Of a stretch of 64,000 nucleotides of DNA, positions 3,623 through 22,309 are shown in pieces. The stretch is from an uncultured delta proteobacterium. Lineage in GTDB: Bacteria > Desulfobacterota > Binatia > Binatales > Binataceae. The DNA lies in contig CAWEEQ010000004.1 of assembly GCA_963808235.1 (NCBI GenBank), forward strand, positions 2,624,001 through 2,688,000, written 5' to 3'. Position numbers and translations under genes: made by a program. The notes beneath the pieces were generated by a model. That model was not told where the DNA came from and made no database searches. It saw only the letters and a list, made by a program, of their open reading frames with translations. The number at the start of each line of letters is the position of its first letter. Position 1 is the first letter of the stretch.

Positions 3623-4526
3623 CGGTTCTCCACCATTTGATAGACTCAGCGATGCCGCCTTGCAGCGTCCATCGCGGGTTCCATCCAACTTCTTCGCGCA
3701 CTTTGCGGGTATCGGCACAAACCACAGGAGGATCGCCGGGCGCCGACTCGATGGCACCGAATTCGATCTGAGCGGGCTGGTGGCTTTGCGTCTCGATCTG
3801 CCGCGCGATCTCTTCGACGATGGAGCGAATTGTAATCGCCTCGCCAGATCCAATGTTGATTGCGCCGTTCGACGAGCTATCCAACAGCGCAACGAAAGCT
3901 TCGGCAACATCCGCGACGTAGAGGAAATCGCGCATCTGACGCCCGTGACTGCATCGCGCTTTCTCACCCCGCAGCAAGGAAGTTATTACTGAGGGGACCA
4001 GCCGTTCGCGAGCCTCGCGCGGACCGTAAAGGTAGAAGACCCGGCCCCATGCGGCGCTGACTCCCGCGCGGGCGGAAAATTCCATGACGTTGCGGCGGAG
4101 ACTATCTTTGCAGGTTCCGTAGAGTGTCGAAGGAGCGGTAGGAGTTAGATCCTCAGAGCAGGTACCGCGGCCAAGATCGTATTCGAAGCAGGAGCCCGCA
4201 AAGACCGCACGCTTACCGCCGTTCTCCGCGAATTCCTTGAGCAGGCACATCCCGGCCTCGCACCACCGGAGATTTTCGCGCGACTCGCGATAGTCGCGCG
4301 GCTGCGCGTACCAGGCGAGATGAAGCAGATGAGTCGGGCTCACTTCGCGCACCAGATTGGCGATAGCTGACGGTTCGAGGAGATCGGCGCGATGCCATTC
4401 GACGCCATCGACCTCGCGACGATTTTTGAGCCACGCCGCATGAACCTCGTAACCCTTGCTTTGAAGGACATCCAGGCTGTGGCTTCCGATGAAACCGCTC
4501 GCACCGGTAACCAAGACGCGTCTCAT
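3606..4526 (-). CDS. NAD-dependent epimerase/dehydratase (CDP-sugar 4-reductase-like SDR)
   Basis: VTGASGFIG and YxxxK (YGTCK) motifs; lies in the rfbFGC context. Confidence 0.9.
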   Translation of the reverse strand: MRRVLVTGASGFIGSHSLDVLQSKGYEVHAAWLKNRREVDGVEWHRADLLEPSAIANLVREVSPTHLLHLAWYAQPRDYRESRENLRWCEAGMCLLKEFAENGGKRAVFAGSCFEYDLGRGTCSEDLTPTAPSTLYGTCKDSLRRNVMEFSARAGVSAAWGRVFYLYGPREARERLVPSVITSLLRGEKARCSHGRQMRDFLYVADVAEAFVALLDSSSNGAINIGSGEAITIRSIVEEIARQIETQSHQPAQIEFGAIESAPGDPPVVCADTRKVREEVGWNPRWTLQGGIAESIKWWRTDARAG

Positions 4527-5053
4527 GAGACAAAATCCGGATGACTGCTATCTTTGGATGAGATCACTTCGGGTCGCATCGGCCACAGAATGTTGAAGGC
4601 CGGATCGTTCCATCGGACGGCGCGCTCGGACTCGGGAGAATAAAATGCCGAGACCTGGTACAAAATCTCACAGTTGTCAGTCAGAGTGAGATAGCCGTGT
4701 GCGAATCCGGCGGGCACATAGAGCATCCGGCGGTTCTCAGCGTCGAGCTGAAGACCTATCCAGTCCCGGTAACTGGGTGAGGCCGTTCTGAGATCGACGA
4801 CCACGTCGTATATAGCACCGCGGACGCATCGCACCAGCTTAGTCTCCTCGTTGGGCCTGACCTGGTAGTGCATACCGCGCAGGGTGCCGCGCTGACTGTT
4901 AAAGGATAGATTGCTTTGCACGAAGTCGGTGGCCAGGCCATGCGCGGCGAATTCATTGCGGCAGAATGCTCGTGCAAAGAATCCACGCTCGTCGTCTTTG
5001 CGCTCGAGGTCAATCAGGTAAGCGTCCTTCAATTTGCACGCGGTGAAAATCAC
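4523..5053 (-). CDS. rfbC: NDP-4-keto-6-deoxyglucose 3,5-epimerase
   Basis: DERGFF, TLRGMHYQ and VPAGFAHG cupin motifs. Confidence 0.93.
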   Translation of the reverse strand: MIFTACKLKDAYLIDLERKDDERGFFARAFCRNEFAAHGLATDFVQSNLSFNSQRGTLRGMHYQVRPNEETKLVRCVRGAIYDVVVDLRTASPSYRDWIGLQLDAENRRMLYVPAGFAHGYLTLTDNCEILYQVSAFYSPESERAVRWNDPAFNILWPMRPEVISSKDSSHPDFVS

Positions 5054-6159
5054 TTAAGTGTCGTGCCAGCGCCGACGCTCGTGTCAGCGGGCGCGTGAAG
5101 TAGCTCCTCATATAGTAGTAGCTGCTGCACGGTAAGTTGGCGCATAGCTGATGCGGGACGGATAGCCGCCTCGCGATACCACTGCACGGTAAGACGAACC
5201 GCGTCGCGAAGCTTCAGCCGAGGCTGCCATGGCAAGCGCGTCCGGGCGCGCTCGGAATCGAGGCCCAAGTATGGCGACTCATGTAAGCCGTCGGACTGGG
5301 GCTCTGCGCGCCAGGATCCATCACCCCATTCATGAATAAGCATCTTGACCAGGTCGGATACGCTGACAGCGTCGCCCTCGTCCGGCCCGAAATTCCAGGC
5401 GCCACTCCATTGCTTACCGTCCACAGATAGCCGCTGCGCAAGGATAAGGTATCCCGAAAGCGGCTCCAGGACGTGCTGCCAGGGCCGGACCGCACCGGGA
5501 TTGCGGACGACCAGCGTCTCTTTGCGACTCAGCGCGCGGATCGCATCGGGAACGATGCGATCAGGCGCCAGGTCGCCACCGCCGATCACGTTTCCCGCTC
5601 GCGCCGTGGCGATAGCGATAACGCGTTCCGCGCTCTCGAAGAAAGATCGCGTATAAGCGTGCGTGACCAGTTCAGCACATGCCTTGCTCGCGCTGTAAGG
5701 GTCCGAGCCTCCCAGGCGATCGTTTTCGCGGTAGCTTTTGGGAGCACTTTGATTCTCGTAGCACTTGTCGCTGGTGACAATCACCGCGGAACGAACAGAC
5801 GGGCATCCGCGAATAGCTTCAAGCACGTTGACCGTACCGATCACGTTCGTTTCGAAGGTGGCGGCAGGCTCGCGATAGGAGCGACGGACGAGCGATTGAG
5901 CAGCAAGGTGAAACACCACTTCGGCTTTGCTCGCTTCCAGCGCGCGTCTTACGACCGACGCATCGCGCACGTCGCCGATGCTCGAATGAATGACTTCCTC
6001 AAGCCCGCATGCATCATAGAAGCTGTTCGGCACTTCAGGGGGCAGCGCCAATCCATACACATCGGCACCCATCTCGCTCAGCCAAAGAGCAAGCCATCCG
6101 CCCTTGAACCCGGTATGGCCGGTGAGTAGTACGCGACGTCCGCGCCAGAAATTAATCAT
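5050..6159 (-). CDS. rfbG: CDP-glucose 4,6-dehydratase
   Basis: TGHTGFKGGWL, TSDKCY, DPYSASK and RPWQHVLEPL motifs. Confidence 0.95.
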   Translation of the reverse strand: MINFWRGRRVLLTGHTGFKGGWLALWLSEMGADVYGLALPPEVPNSFYDACGLEEVIHSSIGDVRDASVVRRALEASKAEVVFHLAAQSLVRRSYREPAATFETNVIGTVNVLEAIRGCPSVRSAVIVTSDKCYENQSAPKSYRENDRLGGSDPYSASKACAELVTHAYTRSFFESAERVIAIATARAGNVIGGGDLAPDRIVPDAIRALSRKETLVVRNPGAVRPWQHVLEPLSGYLILAQRLSVDGKQWSGAWNFGPDEGDAVSVSDLVKMLIHEWGDGSWRAEPQSDGLHESPYLGLDSERARTRLPWQPRLKLRDAVRLTVQWYREAAIRPASAMRQLTVQQLLLYEELLHAPADTSVGAGTTLK

Positions 6160-15158: not shown

Positions 15159-15788
15159 CTAGTTCGCGCGCCGAATAGCGGCTACTCCGGCGCCCGCCGC
15201 GATCAGCATCGCGCCCGCCGCGGTGTTGGTCGCTCGCGCAAAGCGCGGACGTGTCGCCAGGTGGGTCAGGCGGCCGGCGGCCGCACCGTAGGCAAACAGG
15301 ACGAAGAATTCAATCGTGATGCTGGTGGCGGCAAGAATCGCGACCTGAATCGCGACGCTCCCGCGCGGATCGATAAATTGCGGCAGCAGCGCGGCAAAGA
15401 AGATTAGCGCTTTGGGGTTCGATGCCTGCAGGATGAATCCGTTGAGCATCATCCGCGCTGACGAAACGGGCGGCGCGTTTGCGCGTGCGGACGAAACTGC
15501 CGATGACCTCTTGAAGATCGTGACGACGCCGAGCCACACCAGGTATCCGGCGCCGATCCATTTGATCATGAAAAAGAGATTGTACGATGCGATCAGAATC
15601 GCGCCGATGCCGGTTGCGGAAATCAGGAAGTAAAATGCGTTGCCGGCGAGAATTCCCAGACTCGACCATAACGCGGCAATTCGTCCCCGCGACAATCCCT
15701 GCGCAACCACCAGCAATACGGCAGGTCCGGGGGTCAGGCAAAGAATCGTCTCGGTGACCGCAAACAATGCCCAGATTTTCCAGCTCAT
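15159..15788 (-). CDS. LysE/RhtB family translocator
   Basis: LTPGP, GAGYLVWLG and NPKA motifs. Confidence 0.92.
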   Translation of the reverse strand: MSWKIWALFAVTETILCLTPGPAVLLVVAQGLSRGRIAALWSSLGILAGNAFYFLISATGIGAILIASYNLFFMIKWIGAGYLVWLGVVTIFKRSSAVSSARANAPPVSSARMMLNGFILQASNPKALIFFAALLPQFIDPRGSVAIQVAILAATSITIEFFVLFAYGAAAGRLTHLATRPRFARATNTAAGAMLIAAGAGVAAIRRAN

Positions 15789-15841: not shown

Positions 15842-15870
15842 TTGACTCGGGGCACGGAGGCGCGGATATT
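15842..15870 (+). promoter_or_regulatory. Putative sigma70 promoter of the RIO1 leader
   Basis: TTGACT-N17-GATATT upstream of the leader ORF SD. Confidence 0.4.
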
Positions 15871-15903
15871 CTCATCAACTCCCCGGCGGGAGGTGCGCAC
15901 AAA

Positions 15904-15972
15904 ATGAATAGCAACTTGAAAGATCTTGTCGAATTGCGCGTGAGTGCGCCTCCGCTGAGCAGTCGCCGGTAA
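15904..15972 (+). CDS. Putative 22-aa leader peptide (MNSNLKDLVELRVSAPPLSSRR)
   Basis: Strong GGAGG SD at 15889-15893; followed by an intrinsic terminator and alternative pairings. Confidence 0.6.
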   Translation: MNSNLKDLVELRVSAPPLSSRR

Positions 15973-15996
15973 AGAACAGAAATTCCCCGACATCTC

Positions 15997-16028
15997 AGCC
16001 ACGGAGGCATCGCTCCCGTGGTTTTTTT
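15997..16028 (+). terminator. Intrinsic terminator (attenuator) upstream of the RIO1 kinase
   Basis: AGCCACGGAG-GCATCG-CTCCCGTGGTT stem with one bulge, plus a T7 run at 16022-16028. Confidence 0.8.
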
Positions 16029-16183
16029 GCGTCCGCTGCGCGCCGCTACGGTGGCCGACGCGCTCGCGCGCGATTGACGATTTCCACTTTTTCACTTTTC
16101 ACGTTTCGAAAAATCGCAAATGGAGGACGAAGCCATGAGGAAAAATAATTGGCGGCCGAAACCCGTAAGCAACGGAGTACAAG

Positions 16184-16921
16184 ATGTTCGAAAACGATAC
16201 AGAGGACGCATTCGACGCGTTCATCGGCGACGGATTGATAAGTGAAGTTCTTTACGAAGTCCGCAGCGGCAAGGAGGCGACGGTGTATTGCTGCCGCGGC
16301 GCGGAATCGAGTGGAAGAGAGTTCGTGGCGGCGAAAGTTTACCGGCCGCTCGAGCATCGCGGATTTCGCAACGACGCAATCTACCAGACCGGCCGCGACG
16401 CCCCTTTGGACAGCCGCAGCCGGCGCGCGTTGGCGAACAAGACCCGGCATGGGCGCGATGTCCAATTCGGCACCTGGATCAATGCGGAGTTTCAGATCAT
16501 GCGCCTGCTGCATGACGCGGGCGCAGACGTGCCCGAGGTGCTCGCACGATCGGGAAGCGCTCTGCTGATGGAATATTTCGGCGACGAGCGCGGTGCCGCG
16601 CCGATGCTGTTCCGCGCCGCGCTCAATCGCGAAGAGGCCGGCGCGATTCTCCGCAAGATAATCGACAACGTGACCCTATGGCTCGCGAACCATCTGGTGC
16701 ATGGCGACCTGTCGCCGTACAACCTTCTTTACTGGGAGGGGCGAATCGTCGCGATCGATTTTCCGCAGGCGGTCGACGCGCGGGTCAATCCGGCGGCGCG
16801 GTCGTTGCTGATGCGCGATCTGGAAAATGTGTGCGGGTATTTTTCGAAGTATGGAATCCGCGCGGACGCGCATCGGATCGCCAACGGTCTCTGGGTGCAG
16901 TACCAGGCTGGACGGCTCTAG
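16184..16921 (+). CDS. RIO1-family atypical kinase/ATPase
   Basis: SGKEATVY, AKVY, HGDLSPYN and IDFPQAV motifs. Confidence 0.92.
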   Translation: MFENDTEDAFDAFIGDGLISEVLYEVRSGKEATVYCCRGAESSGREFVAAKVYRPLEHRGFRNDAIYQTGRDAPLDSRSRRALANKTRHGRDVQFGTWINAEFQIMRLLHDAGADVPEVLARSGSALLMEYFGDERGAAPMLFRAALNREEAGAILRKIIDNVTLWLANHLVHGDLSPYNLLYWEGRIVAIDFPQAVDARVNPAARSLLMRDLENVCGYFSKYGIRADAHRIANGLWVQYQAGRL

Positions 16922-18130: not shown

Positions 18131-20812
18131 TTACGGAGCGAGCGCCGGGGTAACTCCCTTCGATGATGCGCCAAGCGCGCTCGATGACTCCGAGAGCCCG
18201 TCGCCGGTGGCGGCGGGACTGGCGGAAACGGTGCCCGCACCCGAATCAAGCGGAGCACTCGGAGCACTGGAGGCAATTGGAGCACTCGATGCACTCGGAG
18301 CTCTGGTCGCAATCGAAGCGCTAGCGGCGCCGGGTGTCTTGTTCATCGAGGTCGGCCCGATCTCTTCGGTATTGAACGGAGTCTCGACGTTTCCGCTGCT
18401 GCCCGGAGCCACTTCGCCCGGCGTTGGATTCTCAGGACCCGGTGCGACGGCCGCGCCGCCATAAGGAGCGTTCAGGTCAGCCTCGGGAGAAACGGGAATC
18501 GAGAAGCTCGGCTTGTACAGTTCTCTGATCTGCGAAGCCGGCATGTCGTGAATTTCCTTGCGGCCGATCGAGTTGGCGAACCGCTGGCGTTCGTCGAGAG
18601 CGAGCGAGCGCAGCTCGGTCTTGTTGCGAATGACGTGCGGGGTCAGGAACACGATCAGGTTGTCCTTCTGCTTGTCGTTGCTCTTGTCGCTGAACAGGTT
18701 TCCGAGCACCGGGATACTCGAGATGAACGGGATGCCCTGGTTGGTGATCTGATCCTGGCTTGCGAGCAAGCCGCCGATTACCGCGGTGCGATGGTTCTGG
18801 ATCATCACCGTGGTCGAGGCGGAGCGAATGGTCGTGGTCGGGCCGAGCGGGTTGTTCGCGGTGCCGTTGACGACGTTGGAAACCTCTTCGTAGAGATCCA
18901 GTTTGACGTAGTCGCCTTCTATTCCGGAGACTTGCGGCACGATATCGAGCGTGATGCCGACGTTCTGGCGTTCGACCGAGTTGAAGATCTGCCCGGGCAG
19001 TCCGGCGTTGGCCGCCGACGAGCCGACGAAGGGCAGGTTCTGCCCGACCACAATCATGGCTTCTTCATTGTCGGCGGTCAGCAGGGTCGGCGCGGAGAGC
19101 ACGTTGGCGTGCTGGTCGGTTTCGAGCGCGATGAGGAGTGCCGCGTCGCAAGGAATGTTCACCGTGCCGGTGGTGGAGGTGCCGGTGCCGCCTGTTCCCG
19201 AAGCGGCCGCCGCGAGCGTGCTCGGGACTGCACACATCGTTTTCGAGGCAAGCCCCATCGCGAGGCCGGTCACTCCGAGCGGATTGCCGAGCACATTCTG
19301 AAGCTGGCCGGTGTTAAATGTGCCGACGCCGATCGTACTTCCACTAATGTTCGTGCCGGCGTTGAAGTTGACGCCCAACTCGCGCTGGCGCTCGGCGGAT
19401 ACTTCGACGATGACGGCTTGCACGAAGATCTGGACGCGCGGCTTGTCAAGGTCGTCAACAATTTGCCGGAGCGTCTCCCAATCCTGCGGCAACGCGCTGA
19501 TCACGAGCTGGTTGGTCGCGGGATCGGCAGTTACTTGTACCGGGTAATGGAAATCGACACCCTTGCCGGCGGAACTCGCTGACGACGATCCGCTACCGGC
19601 AGCAGAGGAGCCACTGCTGCTGCGCAGCCCGCCGCCACCCCCAAATCCGCCGCCGCCGCCGAATCCACCGCCGCCGCCAAAGCCGCCGCCGCCACTGGAA
19701 CCGCCAAAGCTTGCGCTGCTCATCAACCCGCCGCCGCCGCCGCCATAGCCGCCGCCGATTCCGCCAAAGCCCGAATTGCCGTAGCCACTGGCGGCGCTGT
19801 TGAAACTCGAGCGACCGAGCGATCCTTTGCCGGTGGTCGGCGAGAGCGTGCTCGGGCTGCTGCCGTTGTTGAGCAGGCTGTTGAGCACCTGGACCATCTC
19901 GATCGCCTCGGCGTTCTTCAGCCGGTAAACATGTATTCGCGAGGTCGCGTTGGTCGGTGAAACGTCAAGCTTGCCGACGATATCCGAGATCTCGCGCATC
20001 TGAAGCGGCGGCGCCAGCACGATCAGCGAGTTGGTGCGCTCGTCGGGGATGACTTTGTAGCCGGTCGCTGATCCAGTGGAGGAAGCGCCTCCGATACCCA
20101 GTTGCGGGCGTCCGGGCACTTGCGCGCCGCCCGAGGACTGCATCCGCGCCGCCATCAACTGATCGATCTCCGGGGCCAACTCGCCCGCGAACGCTATTCT
20201 GAGCGGGATAACCTCGACGGTCGGCTGATCGCCGCGCACGTCGAGGCTGCCGATTACCTGGAGCAATCTTTCGACGTTGTAAGCGTCGTCGGTCACGATG
20301 ACGGTGTTGTCACTGGGAAACGCGGCGACCAGACCGTCGTGCGAGACCATCGGCTGGATAACTCCGACCACCGAGGCCGCGTCGATATTTTTAAGCCGCA
20401 CCATCCGGGTGACGTACTCGTCGCCCCGGGTCTCGGCAGGCGACTGGGATTGGGTCAGCGCAGCCGACGAGCGGATGTTGCGCGCGGGAACGATTTTGAT
20501 CACCTTGCCGGCCTGGACGGTGGTGAAGCCCTTAACCTGTAGGACGGACTGGAAAATCGAATAGGCCTGTTCGGGAGTCACCTTGCTCGGCGAGATGATA
20601 GTAACCTTGCCGCGCACGCTTTCGTCGATGATGAAGTTGCGGCCGGTGATCTCGCTGATGAACTTGGCGAGAACGGGAATATCCACGTTCTGGAAATTCA
20701 TCGTGATCTGATTTTGTGGAGGCAGTCCGACGGGATCCGCCGCAGACGCCCGGAACGCGCAGGCTCCAACAAATAGCGCTGCTGCCAGCGCCCCGGCCAA
20801 TAGACGGTTCAT
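18131..20812 (-). CDS. gspD: Type II secretion secretin
   Basis: Signal peptide, N0 domain (MNFQNVDI...GKVTIISP), N-repeats, secretin domain (SAPTLLT.DNEEA; IPVLGNLF; FLTPHVI). Start ATG 20812 with GGGGAGG SD. Confidence 0.93.
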   Translation of the reverse strand: MNRLLAGALAAALFVGACAFRASAADPVGLPPQNQITMNFQNVDIPVLAKFISEITGRNFIIDESVRGKVTIISPSKVTPEQAYSIFQSVLQVKGFTTVQAGKVIKIVPARNIRSSAALTQSQSPAETRGDEYVTRMVRLKNIDAASVVGVIQPMVSHDGLVAAFPSDNTVIVTDDAYNVERLLQVIGSLDVRGDQPTVEVIPLRIAFAGELAPEIDQLMAARMQSSGGAQVPGRPQLGIGGASSTGSATGYKVIPDERTNSLIVLAPPLQMREISDIVGKLDVSPTNATSRIHVYRLKNAEAIEMVQVLNSLLNNGSSPSTLSPTTGKGSLGRSSFNSAASGYGNSGFGGIGGGYGGGGGGLMSSASFGGSSGGGGFGGGGGFGGGGGFGGGGGLRSSSGSSAAGSGSSSASSAGKGVDFHYPVQVTADPATNQLVISALPQDWETLRQIVDDLDKPRVQIFVQAVIVEVSAERQRELGVNFNAGTNISGSTIGVGTFNTGQLQNVLGNPLGVTGLAMGLASKTMCAVPSTLAAAASGTGGTGTSTTGTVNIPCDAALLIALETDQHANVLSAPTLLTADNEEAMIVVGQNLPFVGSSAANAGLPGQIFNSVERQNVGITLDIVPQVSGIEGDYVKLDLYEEVSNVVNGTANNPLGPTTTIRSASTTVMIQNHRTAVIGGLLASQDQITNQGIPFISSIPVLGNLFSDKSNDKQKDNLIVFLTPHVIRNKTELRSLALDERQRFANSIGRKEIHDMPASQIRELYKPSFSIPVSPEADLNAPYGGAAVAPGPENPTPGEVAPGSSGNVETPFNTEEIGPTSMNKTPGAASASIATRAPSASSAPIASSAPSAPLDSGAGTVSASPAATGDGLSESSSALGASSKGVTPALAP
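19627..19760 (-). repeat. Gly-rich low-complexity repeats (GGGGGF)n inside gspD
   Basis: Translation FGGSSGGGGFGGGGGFGGGGGFGGGGG. Confidence 0.8.
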
Positions 20813-21028
20813 CCGAGCACCCTCCCCGCAATTTCGGGTCAAACGCCGTGAGCTTAATTCACACCCCCGAGGCAGTGCAACCCACAAAGATTGCAAATGC
20901 GCCGAGGCTCGGCGACTATGACGAAGTCTGCGCCCATTTGATTCAATGAACCCCGCGAACCAAAACGCTTTCCGCACGTGCGCAGGTCCGCGCGGGGCCG
21001 CCGCCGGCAGCCGGTAAGGATATCCGGA

Positions 21029-22309
21029 TTGCGCTTCGAATTCCTGATCGGACTGCGATATTTGCGGGCCCGGCGCCGCGAACGATTCGTCTCGCTGATC
21101 GCGATAATTTCTCTTATCGGAGTCACACTCGGGACTTGGGCGCTGACGGTTGCGCTGTCGGTGATGTGCGGATTCCAGGAAGATTTGCGCGGCCGGCTGC
21201 TCGCATTCACTCCGCAAATCACGATCGAACGCAGTGACGGCGGGGTCTGGAATCCAGCCGACCTGGAGAAGAAACTCGCGGCTATTCCCGCCGTGACCGC
21301 GTCTGCGCCATTCGTTACCTCGCAGGTGATGGCGGTATCGAGCACGGATACTGGGGCACCCGGGCTCGTTTCGGGCGGAATTTTGCGCGGCGTTATCGCA
21401 CACGACAACCCGGTCCTGAAAGAATTGCAAAGCACGCTCGAGTCGGGAAGCCTCGCCGGACTGGAGAAGACCTATCCGGTGACTATCTTGGACAAGAGCG
21501 TGAAGCGGGAAGTCGAGCTGCCGGGCGCGATAGTCGGCAGGCAGCTCGCCTTGGACCTCGACGCGAGAGTTGGCGATCCGATCATTCTGATTTCGCCCGC
21601 AAGCCTGGGCTCGGGAATCGGGCCGCCGCGGCTCAAGCGATTCGTGGTCGAGGGCATCTTTCACTCCGGCATGTACGAGTTCGACTCGACGCTGGTTTTC
21701 ACCGCGCTGAAAGACGGACGCGCGCTGCTGGCTGATGATCCGAATCTGGAGAGCGGGCTGGAACTCAGGCTGGTCAACATGTTCGACGCGCCGGCGATGC
21801 GCAACCAGATCGCGGCGATCGCGGGGCCGGACTTCGAGGTTTCCGATTGGACCACGGCCAACGCGCCGCTCTTCTCCGCGCTGCAACTGGAGAAGTTCAC
21901 CTATTTCATGGTGCTGCTGCTGATCGTGCTGGTCGCCGCGTTCAACATTATCGCGACGCTGGTGATGGTGGTGATGGAGCGACGCAAGGAAATCGCTATT
22001 GTGCGCGCGATGGGCGCGCGGGCCGTGTCGGTGGCGGCGATCTTCTTATGCGAAGGGGCGGCGCTCGGGATCGTCGGCACGATGATCGGCGTCGTTGCGG
22101 GCTTTCTGACTTCTTTCGCAATCGGCAGGTACCATCTGATTCGTCTGCCCGCCGACATGTTCATGGTGAGCAACGTGCCGGTGTGCCTGCGTGCGGTTAA
22201 TTTTATCGCGGTGGCGGCGGCGACGATCGTGCTGTGCCTGCTCGCGGCGGTTTACCCGGCATTGCAGGCGATGCGCCTCTCGCCGGTCGAGGTGATTCGT
22301 TATGAGTGA
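21029..22309 (+). CDS. lolC: Lipoprotein-releasing ABC transporter permease LolC/E
   Basis: RYLRARR..FVSLI, FHSGMYEFD and ERRKEIAI motifs. Probable TTG start at 21029. Confidence 0.92.
   Translation: MRFEFLIGLRYLRARRRERFVSLIAIISLIGVTLGTWALTVALSVMCGFQEDLRGRLLAFTPQITIERSDGGVWNPADLEKKLAAIPAVTASAPFVTSQVMAVSSTDTGAPGLVSGGILRGVIAHDNPVLKELQSTLESGSLAGLEKTYPVTILDKSVKREVELPGAIVGRQLALDLDARVGDPIILISPASLGSGIGPPRLKRFVVEGIFHSGMYEFDSTLVFTALKDGRALLADDPNLESGLELRLVNMFDAPAMRNQIAAIAGPDFEVSDWTTANAPLFSALQLEKFTYFMVLLLIVLVAAFNIIATLVMVVMERRKEIAIVRAMGARAVSVAAIFLCEGAALGIVGTMIGVVAGFLTSFAIGRYHLIRLPADMFMVSNVPVCLRAVNFIAVAAATIVLCLLAAVYPALQAMRLSPVEVIRYE

Follow-up and report, generated by a model that had tools for sequence, protein, structure and literature searches.

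A RIO1-family kinase/ATPase gene of an uncultured delta proteobacterium (Binatia; Binataceae) is preceded by an RNA leader that, on comparative sequence evidence, is very probably a ribosome-dependent (leader-peptide) transcription attenuator gating expression of the gene. Both lie on the forward strand of the 64,000-nucleotide stretch analysed here (contig CAWEEQ010000004.1, positions 2,624,001–2,688,000; hereafter the window, whose numbering is used unless another locus is named). An initial annotation, made from the letters and open reading frames (ORFs) of the window, had proposed an attenuator of 1:2 / 2:3 / 3:4 architecture at this site, and loci from Binatia and Chloroflexota now provide comparative evidence for that architecture: the element has a defined anatomy, is linked to RIO1, and covaries in all three of its helices.

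The leader follows a sigma-70-type promoter-like match (TTGACT-17-GATATT, 15842–15870), the sole match of this kind between 15000 and 17500, whose hexamers are unchanged in the related loci L001–L004 (leader alignment). It comprises a Shine–Dalgarno sequence (SD; GGAGGTG, 15889–15895), an upstream ORF of 22 codons (uORF1, 15904–15972; ATG at 15904, TAA at 15970–15972, peptide MNSNLKDLVELRVSAPPLSSRR) and an intrinsic terminator (15998–16028, −14.9 kcal/mol) made of a hairpin at 15998–16022 and a T7 tract at 16022–16028; the GGAGG-led 22-residue uORF and the T7 terminator first described are therefore both present. The CCACGG..CCGTGG hairpin occurs once in the whole 64-kb window, as this terminator. 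Segment 1 (15884–15898; SD GGAGGUG plus flanks) would provide the 5′ strand of an anti-antiterminator whose partner is segment 2 (15944–15959; the anti-SD-like GUGCGCCUCCG(CUGAG)), and segment 2 could alternatively pair with segment 3 (15994–16008), the 3′ strand of the antiterminator, which overlaps the terminator 5′ arm. Helix 1:2 joins GGAGGTGCGC (15889–15898) to GTGCGCCTCC (15944–15953) through 10 bp including two G–U pairs; its isolated energy is −17.3 kcal/mol, and RNAfold extends it into a hairpin at 15880–15962 of −29.4 kcal/mol. Helix 2:3 joins GCCTCCG-CTGAG (15948–15959) to CTCAG-cca-CGGAGGC (15994–16008) through 7 + 5 bp across a 3-nt bulge (−16.6 kcal/mol; −11.3 kcal/mol for the 7-bp core CGGAGGC:GCCUCCG by itself). 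A small 5′ hairpin (CUCCC/GGGAG, 15879–15892), seen in constrained and truncated folds, occupies half of the SD; it is kept in six Binatia leaders and absent from Chloroflexota leaders, and the folding models give it a putative role as a competitor of helix 1:2. RIO1 itself, with the SD GGAG at 16174–16177, occupies 16184–16921 (Pfam RIO1, 1e-33).

The same element recurs in front of other RIO1 genes. An alignment of 27 RIO1 proteins, used to scan species-representative genomes, gave at least 80 loci, from which all locus counts below are drawn. A first covariance model was built from six leaders and a second from the 12 best matches of the first; run on the window and the 80 loci (543,837 bases), the model returned 31 matches at E ≤ 0.01, of which 29 are on the plus strand, each upstream of RIO1 (the window and 28/80 loci), and the remaining two hit the palindromic terminator on the minus strand. 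The leader-bearing loci belong to Binatia and to Chloroflexota (Anaerolineae, Promineifilaceae and others). We also applied a motif-free rule, consisting of an SD, an ATG 8–18 nt on, an ORF of 12–40 codons, a sequence close to the end of the ORF able to pair with the SD region at −12 kcal/mol or below, and a terminator within 70 nt past the stop; among the 76 loci with at least 300 nt of upstream sequence the design is present in 35, compared with 0/76 on the opposite strand and 0/134 control regions.

In L001–L005, whose RIO1 proteins are 77–79% identical to that of the window, the leader is the same, with hexamers, SD, ATG, segment 2 and terminator conserved, and the DNA farther upstream is unalignable. 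Their upstream genes encode an outer-membrane efflux protein, a PAS histidine kinase, a product of no known family, a helix-turn-helix protein and a multicopper oxidase; since upstream neighbours differ among the window and these five loci, the leader travels with RIO1. In Chloroflexota, RIO1 is extended at its N terminus by ~65–70 residues, so that terminator and start codon lie about as far apart as in Binatia. Rfam 15 gave no match at the gathering score for the window and 14 related loci (the best sub-threshold match of the window is STnc290, 20.7 bits against a cut-off of 60, to the terminator part only), and full-text literature searches found no description of a leader on a bacterial RIO gene. 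The leader is a new family within a known kind, the classical ribosome-dependent transcription attenuator; judged by these searches, the family spans at least two phyla and is widespread and previously undescribed. Inspection by eye picks out a variant leader in Ktedonobacteria (L010–L016 and L019; for example L013:2590–2790), with other segment 1 and 2 sequences and two terminators: the SD region reads GGAGCGUGC, and segment 2 (GCAUCACGUCUCC) lies within a short ORF and is complementary to the second terminator's conserved loop region (GCGUGAUGC). Two of these variants, L012 and L019, were caught by the motif-free rule.

Covariation was counted on 28 leaders aligned with MAFFT with no structure fitted, pairs being scored afterwards for named structures. 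L026, which matches the covariance model least well (E 0.0093) and whose segment 2 is broken in the alignment, was left out of the MAFFT alignments, the frame test and the family folds; a 2:3 count on the model-fitted alignment was dropped because insert columns broke the register, and the MAFFT alignment was used in its place. Helix 1:2 is paired in 79.5% of 332 cells (slid controls 29–66%), with changes on both sides in 6/12 pairs; helix 2:3 in 85.0% of 240 cells (controls 30–63%), with both-side changes in 5/9 pairs; and the lower stem of helix 3:4 in 96.4% of 224 cells (controls 38–46%), with both-side changes in 5/8 pairs. Double-change cells number 24 in helix 1:2 (12.3 ± 2.7 in shuffles), 14 in helix 2:3 (5.3 ± 2.0) and 16 in helix 3:4 (3.6 ± 1.5), and in each case 0/500 shuffles were as high. 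The extent of the change is seen by setting segments 1, 2 and 3 of the window (GGAGGUGCGC / GUGCGCCUCCG / CGGAGGC) beside those of L076 (GGAGGUACGCA / UGCGUACACCUG / CAGGUGUACG) and L071 (GGUACCCACA / UGUGGGUACACCUG / CGGGUGUAC). Without any alignment, when the whole upstream leader is searched for the strongest duplex with the terminator 5′ arm and loop, the partner overlaps segment 2 in 27/29 leaders, where 15/29 are expected with a shuffled arm and a reversed arm gives 18/29; 0/100,000 simulated draws reached 27. Compensatory changes among the upstream regions of RIO1 relatives, which the initial annotation had put forward as a check, thus occur in all three helices, and the 1:2 pairing that it drew in the window covaries across the 28 leaders.

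What these leaders keep in uORF1 is a reading frame. Translation would start at an ATG 3–12 nt past GAGG in 28/29 leaders (GTG in L026), the ORF spans 11–30 codons (median 22), and its stop falls 3–35 nt (median 12) past the CCU of segment 2 and 6–41 nt (median 26) ahead of the terminator stem. The frame set by the SD and ATG has its first stop between segment 2 and the terminator in 28/28 leaders, against 6/28 for each of the other two frames, in which 19–20/28 stop earlier (where a leader has two ATGs the fitting one was chosen, which introduces a small bias). All six Binatia leaders retain uORF1, although indels have altered its length (+24 nt in L003, +3 nt in L005) and L004 stops sooner. 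The codons across segment 2 give Ala-Pro in most leaders and Arg-Leu in four (L006, L007, L029 and L065), and L078 uses the third frame; because different lineages read it in all three frames, its conservation is at the RNA level. Over codons 2–12 of the six Binatia leaders, variable columns number 7, 5 and 6 of 11 at the three codon positions. Since the frame is kept and the peptides are unlike one another, translation across segment 2 with a stop just after it is what is conserved, not a protein, and a functional small protein was rejected on the dissimilarity of the peptides, the three frames of segment 2 and the flat codon-position variability.

The peptide of the window lacks an amino-acid-rich tract, as noted at the outset, and no enriched residue run is common to the 29 peptides. 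Nor does it contain the RLR arrest motif (as defined in PMC6310831), and the 29 peptides have no motif in common; arrest motifs being diverse, antibiotic sensing by the leader may nonetheless be compatible with the absence of RLR. Around the uORF1 stop codon, GUCG (15962–15965) and CGAC (15988–15991) could form a further helix, which RNAalifold predicts in six Binatia leaders with one pair varying among GC, GU and AU; in relatives of the window an inner CCGG/CCGG stem puts the uORF1 UAA in a loop.

From this anatomy we infer a folding order and the ribosome state that would give read-through. Transcription from the 15842–15870 promoter would produce a leader with a strong SD and a 22-codon uORF, in which segment 1 (the SD and following bases) could pair with segment 2, or segment 2 with the terminator 5′ arm; if left unpaired with segment 2, that arm would close the terminator hairpin ahead of the T7 tract. 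With no ribosome, helix 1:2 would form first and then the terminator, and transcription would end at about 16028. A ribosome reaching the end of the uORF would cover segment 2, and the terminator would again form. A ribosome detained on the SD, at the start codon or within the first twelve or so codons would block segment 1, allowing 2:3 to form and transcription to read through into RIO1. Minimum-free-energy (MFE) folds of the window give the expected states: with no ribosome, 15877–16030 folds into helix 1:2 plus the terminator; a footprint imposed on the SD and start codon yields 2:3, which persists at full length with loss of the terminator (−39.8 kcal/mol); and a footprint over segment 2 or at the stop codon yields the terminator. 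Across the family, the terminator is retained in the full-length MFE fold of 28/28 leaders. The proposal that an early-held ribosome is needed for the antiterminator agrees with the constrained folds of the window, but is less cleanly reflected by equilibrium folds of the family.

Several observations weigh against the attenuator or reduce the force of the numbers given for it. The folding energy of the window leader is ordinary for its composition (z = −1.20, with 25/200 shuffles folding equally well or better) and is uninformative as evidence; the window sequence by itself therefore proves nothing, and the case beyond chance rests on conservation and covariation over 28 further loci. A simple terminator scan missed the bulged terminator hairpin of the window. 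The shuffle controls overstate significance because the leader sequences are related, slides of ±2 keep 57–66% of cells paired in helices 1:2 and 2:3 because of GC repeats, and Binatia rows count as partly broken in 2:3 because their register is shifted by 2 nt. Base composition by itself places about half of shuffled arms (15/29) on segment 2. The 7-bp 2:3 core has a U–C mismatch in L002, and the extended 2:3 pairing of the initial annotation, although present in the window and covarying in its core, has its CTGAG:CTCAG extension in the window only, L001–L005 lacking it. The ~155 nt between terminator and RIO1 contain a well-conserved block with its own SD and ATG, where a non-sigma-70 promoter is possible. 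Masking of segment 1 abolishes the terminator of the full-length fold in just 9/28 leaders, and in RNAs that lack the 3′ arm, with no ribosome mask, the terminator 5′ arm pairs upstream in 27/28. As equilibrium folds alone do not separate the states, the outcome must be decided kinetically, with a polarity that is a matter of deduction: on our model the choice must be set by the order of synthesis and the position of the ribosome as the terminator 3′ arm emerges.

The behaviour of these truncated, unmasked RNAs, of which that of the window has the 5′ hairpin plus 2:3 as its minimum (−44.0 kcal/mol), is also what a switch of reversed polarity would show. In such a switch the naked leader would fold into 2:3 and read through by default and efficient translation of the uORF would terminate, so that RIO1 would rise whenever leader initiation fails and not just on ribosome stalling. 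We consider this unlikely, given that helix 1:2 is conserved and covaries, which argues for a selected role as anti-antiterminator, that segment 2 is made before segment 3, which lets 1:2 form first, and that the full-length RNA is most stable with 1:2 and the terminator both formed.

Improbable, too, is a switch set by a factor acting in trans on the leader, whether an RNA-binding protein (possibly RIO1 in autoregulation) or a non-translating 30S subunit on the SD. The GCCACGG/CCGUGGC hairpin would be its binding site, with a lower stem near-identical from Binatia to low-GC Chloroflexota; compensatory changes in 5/8 of the lower-stem pairs indicate, however, that structure is kept and not sequence, and multi-partner pairing, in which each segment fits two others, can explain a slow drift of sequence. 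Segment 1 being the SD, a bound 30S subunit might suffice to release segment 2, but the ORF through segment 2 and the positioned stop in 28/28 leaders point to elongating ribosomes. Recurrence of the lower stem in further tandem hairpins would favour a bound factor, being unusual for plain terminators: an extra hairpin within 200 nt, with a 7-nt 5′ arm at most one base off that of the first terminator, is found in 7/29 leaders, one of these hairpins lying in coding sequence.

The tandem hairpins themselves, two or three terminator-like structures with the same GCCACGG/CCGUGGC lower stem, occur in several Chloroflexota leaders (L029:1911–1976, L035:717–745, L039:2514–2542, L058:2549–2654, L065:1447–1470 and L070:2645–2669).

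Promoter scans favour transcription initiation ahead of the leader. A sigma-70-type promoter matching at least 9/12 within 70 nt upstream of the SD is found in 20/29 leaders, with the recurring form TTGAC-17/18-TAnACT; the terminator-to-RIO1 stretches, which are much longer, reach 9/12 or better in 5/29 and show no common form in the same sigma-70-type scan. A RIO1 promoter downstream of the terminator, the alternative raised by the initial annotation itself, thus finds no recurrent sigma-70 site. It is very improbable that the 150-nt unit is an independent gene (a small RNA or 22-residue protein with its terminator), RIO1 having a separate downstream promoter and the alternative pairings being incidental: the strong terminator held in all 28 full-length folds and the conserved block ahead of RIO1 would suit it, and known attenuators can release terminated leader RNAs that act in trans (rnTrpL, for example, in the available text on it), but among the loci listed the unit is seen upstream of RIO1 only, on the same strand, in two phyla and amid changing neighbours, the terminator-overlapping helix 2:3 covaries, which a free-standing gene would not need, the peptide is unconserved (7/5/6 of 11 columns, segment 2 in three frames), and the region past the terminator lacks a recurrent sigma-70 promoter.

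Two other candidates were rejected: a riboswitch, as the stretch between segments 1 and 2 is free to vary in sequence and length; and a CsrA-type GGA hairpin, as the Chloroflexota arms read CACGGGU. Segment 2, considered as a possible mimic of the 16S rRNA 3′ end, showed no apparent likeness to it past the CCUCC core.

The conserved block ahead of RIO1 opens a second uORF of 36 codons (16123–16245; SD GGAGGA at 16123–16128, ATG at 16135, stop at 16243–16245), which overlaps the SD and start codon of RIO1 out of frame. Its SD and ATG block is invariant in L001–L005, where the ORF is maintained through in-frame 6-nt indels, and second uORFs of a similar kind are seen by eye in L006, L007, L017 and the Ktedonobacteria loci. 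This uORF may add a further tier of control, exerted on translation. RNAalifold finds no conserved structure in the terminator-to-RIO1 region (−0.48 kcal/mol, no covarying pair).

In the trpL, pheL and hisL attenuators, an absent or fast ribosome leads to termination and an early-stalled ribosome to read-through. The RIO1 leader has the same 1:2 / 2:3 / 3:4 logic; unlike them, it has no regulatory codon run, precedes a gene that is not biosynthetic, and includes the SD in segment 1. Closest in logic, by analogy, are two antibiotic-responsive leaders. The rli80 leader of hflXr (lmo0762) in Listeria monocytogenes encodes a 14-residue peptide with an RLR macrolide-stalling motif, and induction by lincomycin and erythromycin was shown experimentally, according to the available text of the report (PMC6310831). 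Like that leader as there described, the RIO1 leader would have a small translated ORF over the anti-antiterminator, mutually exclusive antiterminator and terminator hairpins, and a regulated gene related to ribosome factors and not to biosynthetic enzymes (PMC6310831); unlike it, its peptides, put at 18–30 residues for this comparison, have no conserved motif and its anti-antiterminator is the SD, the two leaders are unrelated in sequence, and the RIO1 leader is known from sequence alone. In the bmrB–bmrCD leader of Bacillus subtilis, leader translation is needed for induction by antibiotics that target protein synthesis, again from the available text (PMC4191407). A leader ORF, three alternative stem-loops and an intrinsic terminator are features in common, as is a downstream efflux transporter in 10/21 leader-bearing RIO1 loci (none follows RIO1 in the window); the bmrB terminator differs in lying within the leader ORF, where rare codons matter, whereas the RIO1 uORF ends a median of 26 nt before the terminator (PMC4191407). 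The vmlR, msrD, whiB7 and topAI-yjhQ leaders likewise use a short 5′ uORF that couples ribosome stalling to a stress or resistance gene; these are experimentally supported, some working through Rho or translation attenuation, and in the available text on them none is reported in front of a RIO kinase.

The identification of the regulated gene as RIO1 holds up. Beyond the Pfam match, its product matches archaeal Rio1 (1ZP9, Archaeoglobus) with E 4.5e-21, and the motifs HGDLSPYN and IDFPQAV align with HADLSEYN and IDMGQAV of the archaeal protein, in agreement with HxDLSxYN and IDxxQ; the catalytic-motif positions are invariant in 27 relatives. The protein collection holds 3951 relatives, the closest named ones being from Candidatus Binatus and Binataceae, and the solved structures matched include Rio1 in pre-40S entries. 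RIO kinases of archaea and eukaryotes are well-studied late factors in small-subunit maturation; for the bacterial branch, our literature searches found nothing on function or regulation.

Genes behind RIO1 were surveyed where an ORF of 150 residues or more begins, in the same direction, −40 to +250 nt from the RIO1 stop, as it does in 46 loci; Pfam was run on the downstream ORFs of 41 of these and of two more, with L001–L003 left out. An efflux-type transporter lies 3′ of RIO1 in 10/21 leader-bearing loci and in 0/20 loci without a detected leader (41 loci; the 20 include four with a Ktedonobacteria-type leader by eye and three with no upstream sequence). Five of the transporters are MFS_1 (L035, L039, L040, L044 and L047) and five are an ABC exporter or part of one (L036, L066, L071, L075 and L076). 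In L039, L044, L066 and L071 no more than 4 nt separate the RIO1 stop from the start of the transporter gene, or the gene overlaps that stop (L039:3742–5007, L044:3744–4247, L066:3739–5604 and L071:3738–5591; the genes of L076 and L036 are at 3802–5634 and 3743–5023). This arrangement suggests RIO1–efflux operons under leader control, and the efflux context is circumstantially consistent with a response to translation inhibitors. At one locus only (L029:3095–4261), a gene for the GTPase RsgA, a small-subunit assembly factor, lies 140 nt past RIO1 on the same strand.

Because the peptide is unconserved and has neither a codon tract nor a shared arrest motif, the signal would most likely be slowed initiation or early elongation in general, through translation inhibitors, starvation, cold or defective subunits, and not a single amino acid. 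A part for RIO1 in ribosome quality control, at which the initial annotation hinted, would likewise be conjecture. More tentatively, bacterial RIO kinases could be the output of an ancient, cross-phylum sensor of translation state and perhaps not housekeeping assembly factors, a possibility that we regard as doubtful but worth setting out. If it were true, RIO1 would be turned on by ribosomes detained at the beginning of a test ORF, as under translation inhibitors or with defective small subunits, and many Chloroflexota leaders would also drive the efflux pump directly behind RIO1. On this view the kinase would act as an inducible factor for ribosome rescue or protection, or as a drug-modifying enzyme, its fold being common to antibiotic kinases, and some of the tandem identical-stem terminators of Chloroflexota may be a relay, in which a freed 3′ arm would pair with the 5′ arm of the next terminator and disarm it.

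A leader that would read ribosome progress in front of RIO1 in at least two phyla offers a testable hint of when bacteria need this enzyme, and would be the first regulatory clue that a bacterial RIO-type kinase responds to translation state; the efflux pumps apparently co-transcribed in some lineages narrow the hypotheses to a translation-inhibitor response. As an RNA, the leader looks to be a clean natural three-helix switch in which the SD itself would serve as anti-antiterminator, and its natural covariation suffices to define a family that Rfam 15 lacks.

In the window, the leader lies in a divergent intergenic control region between RIO1 and a LysE-type exporter gene on the reverse strand (15159–15788; Pfam LysE 2.2e-32). 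No gene in the same direction follows RIO1, and a lipid A acyltransferase gene converges on it. Farther on, a 1251-residue ORF on the reverse strand (18131–21886) contains a glycine-rich low-complexity stretch.

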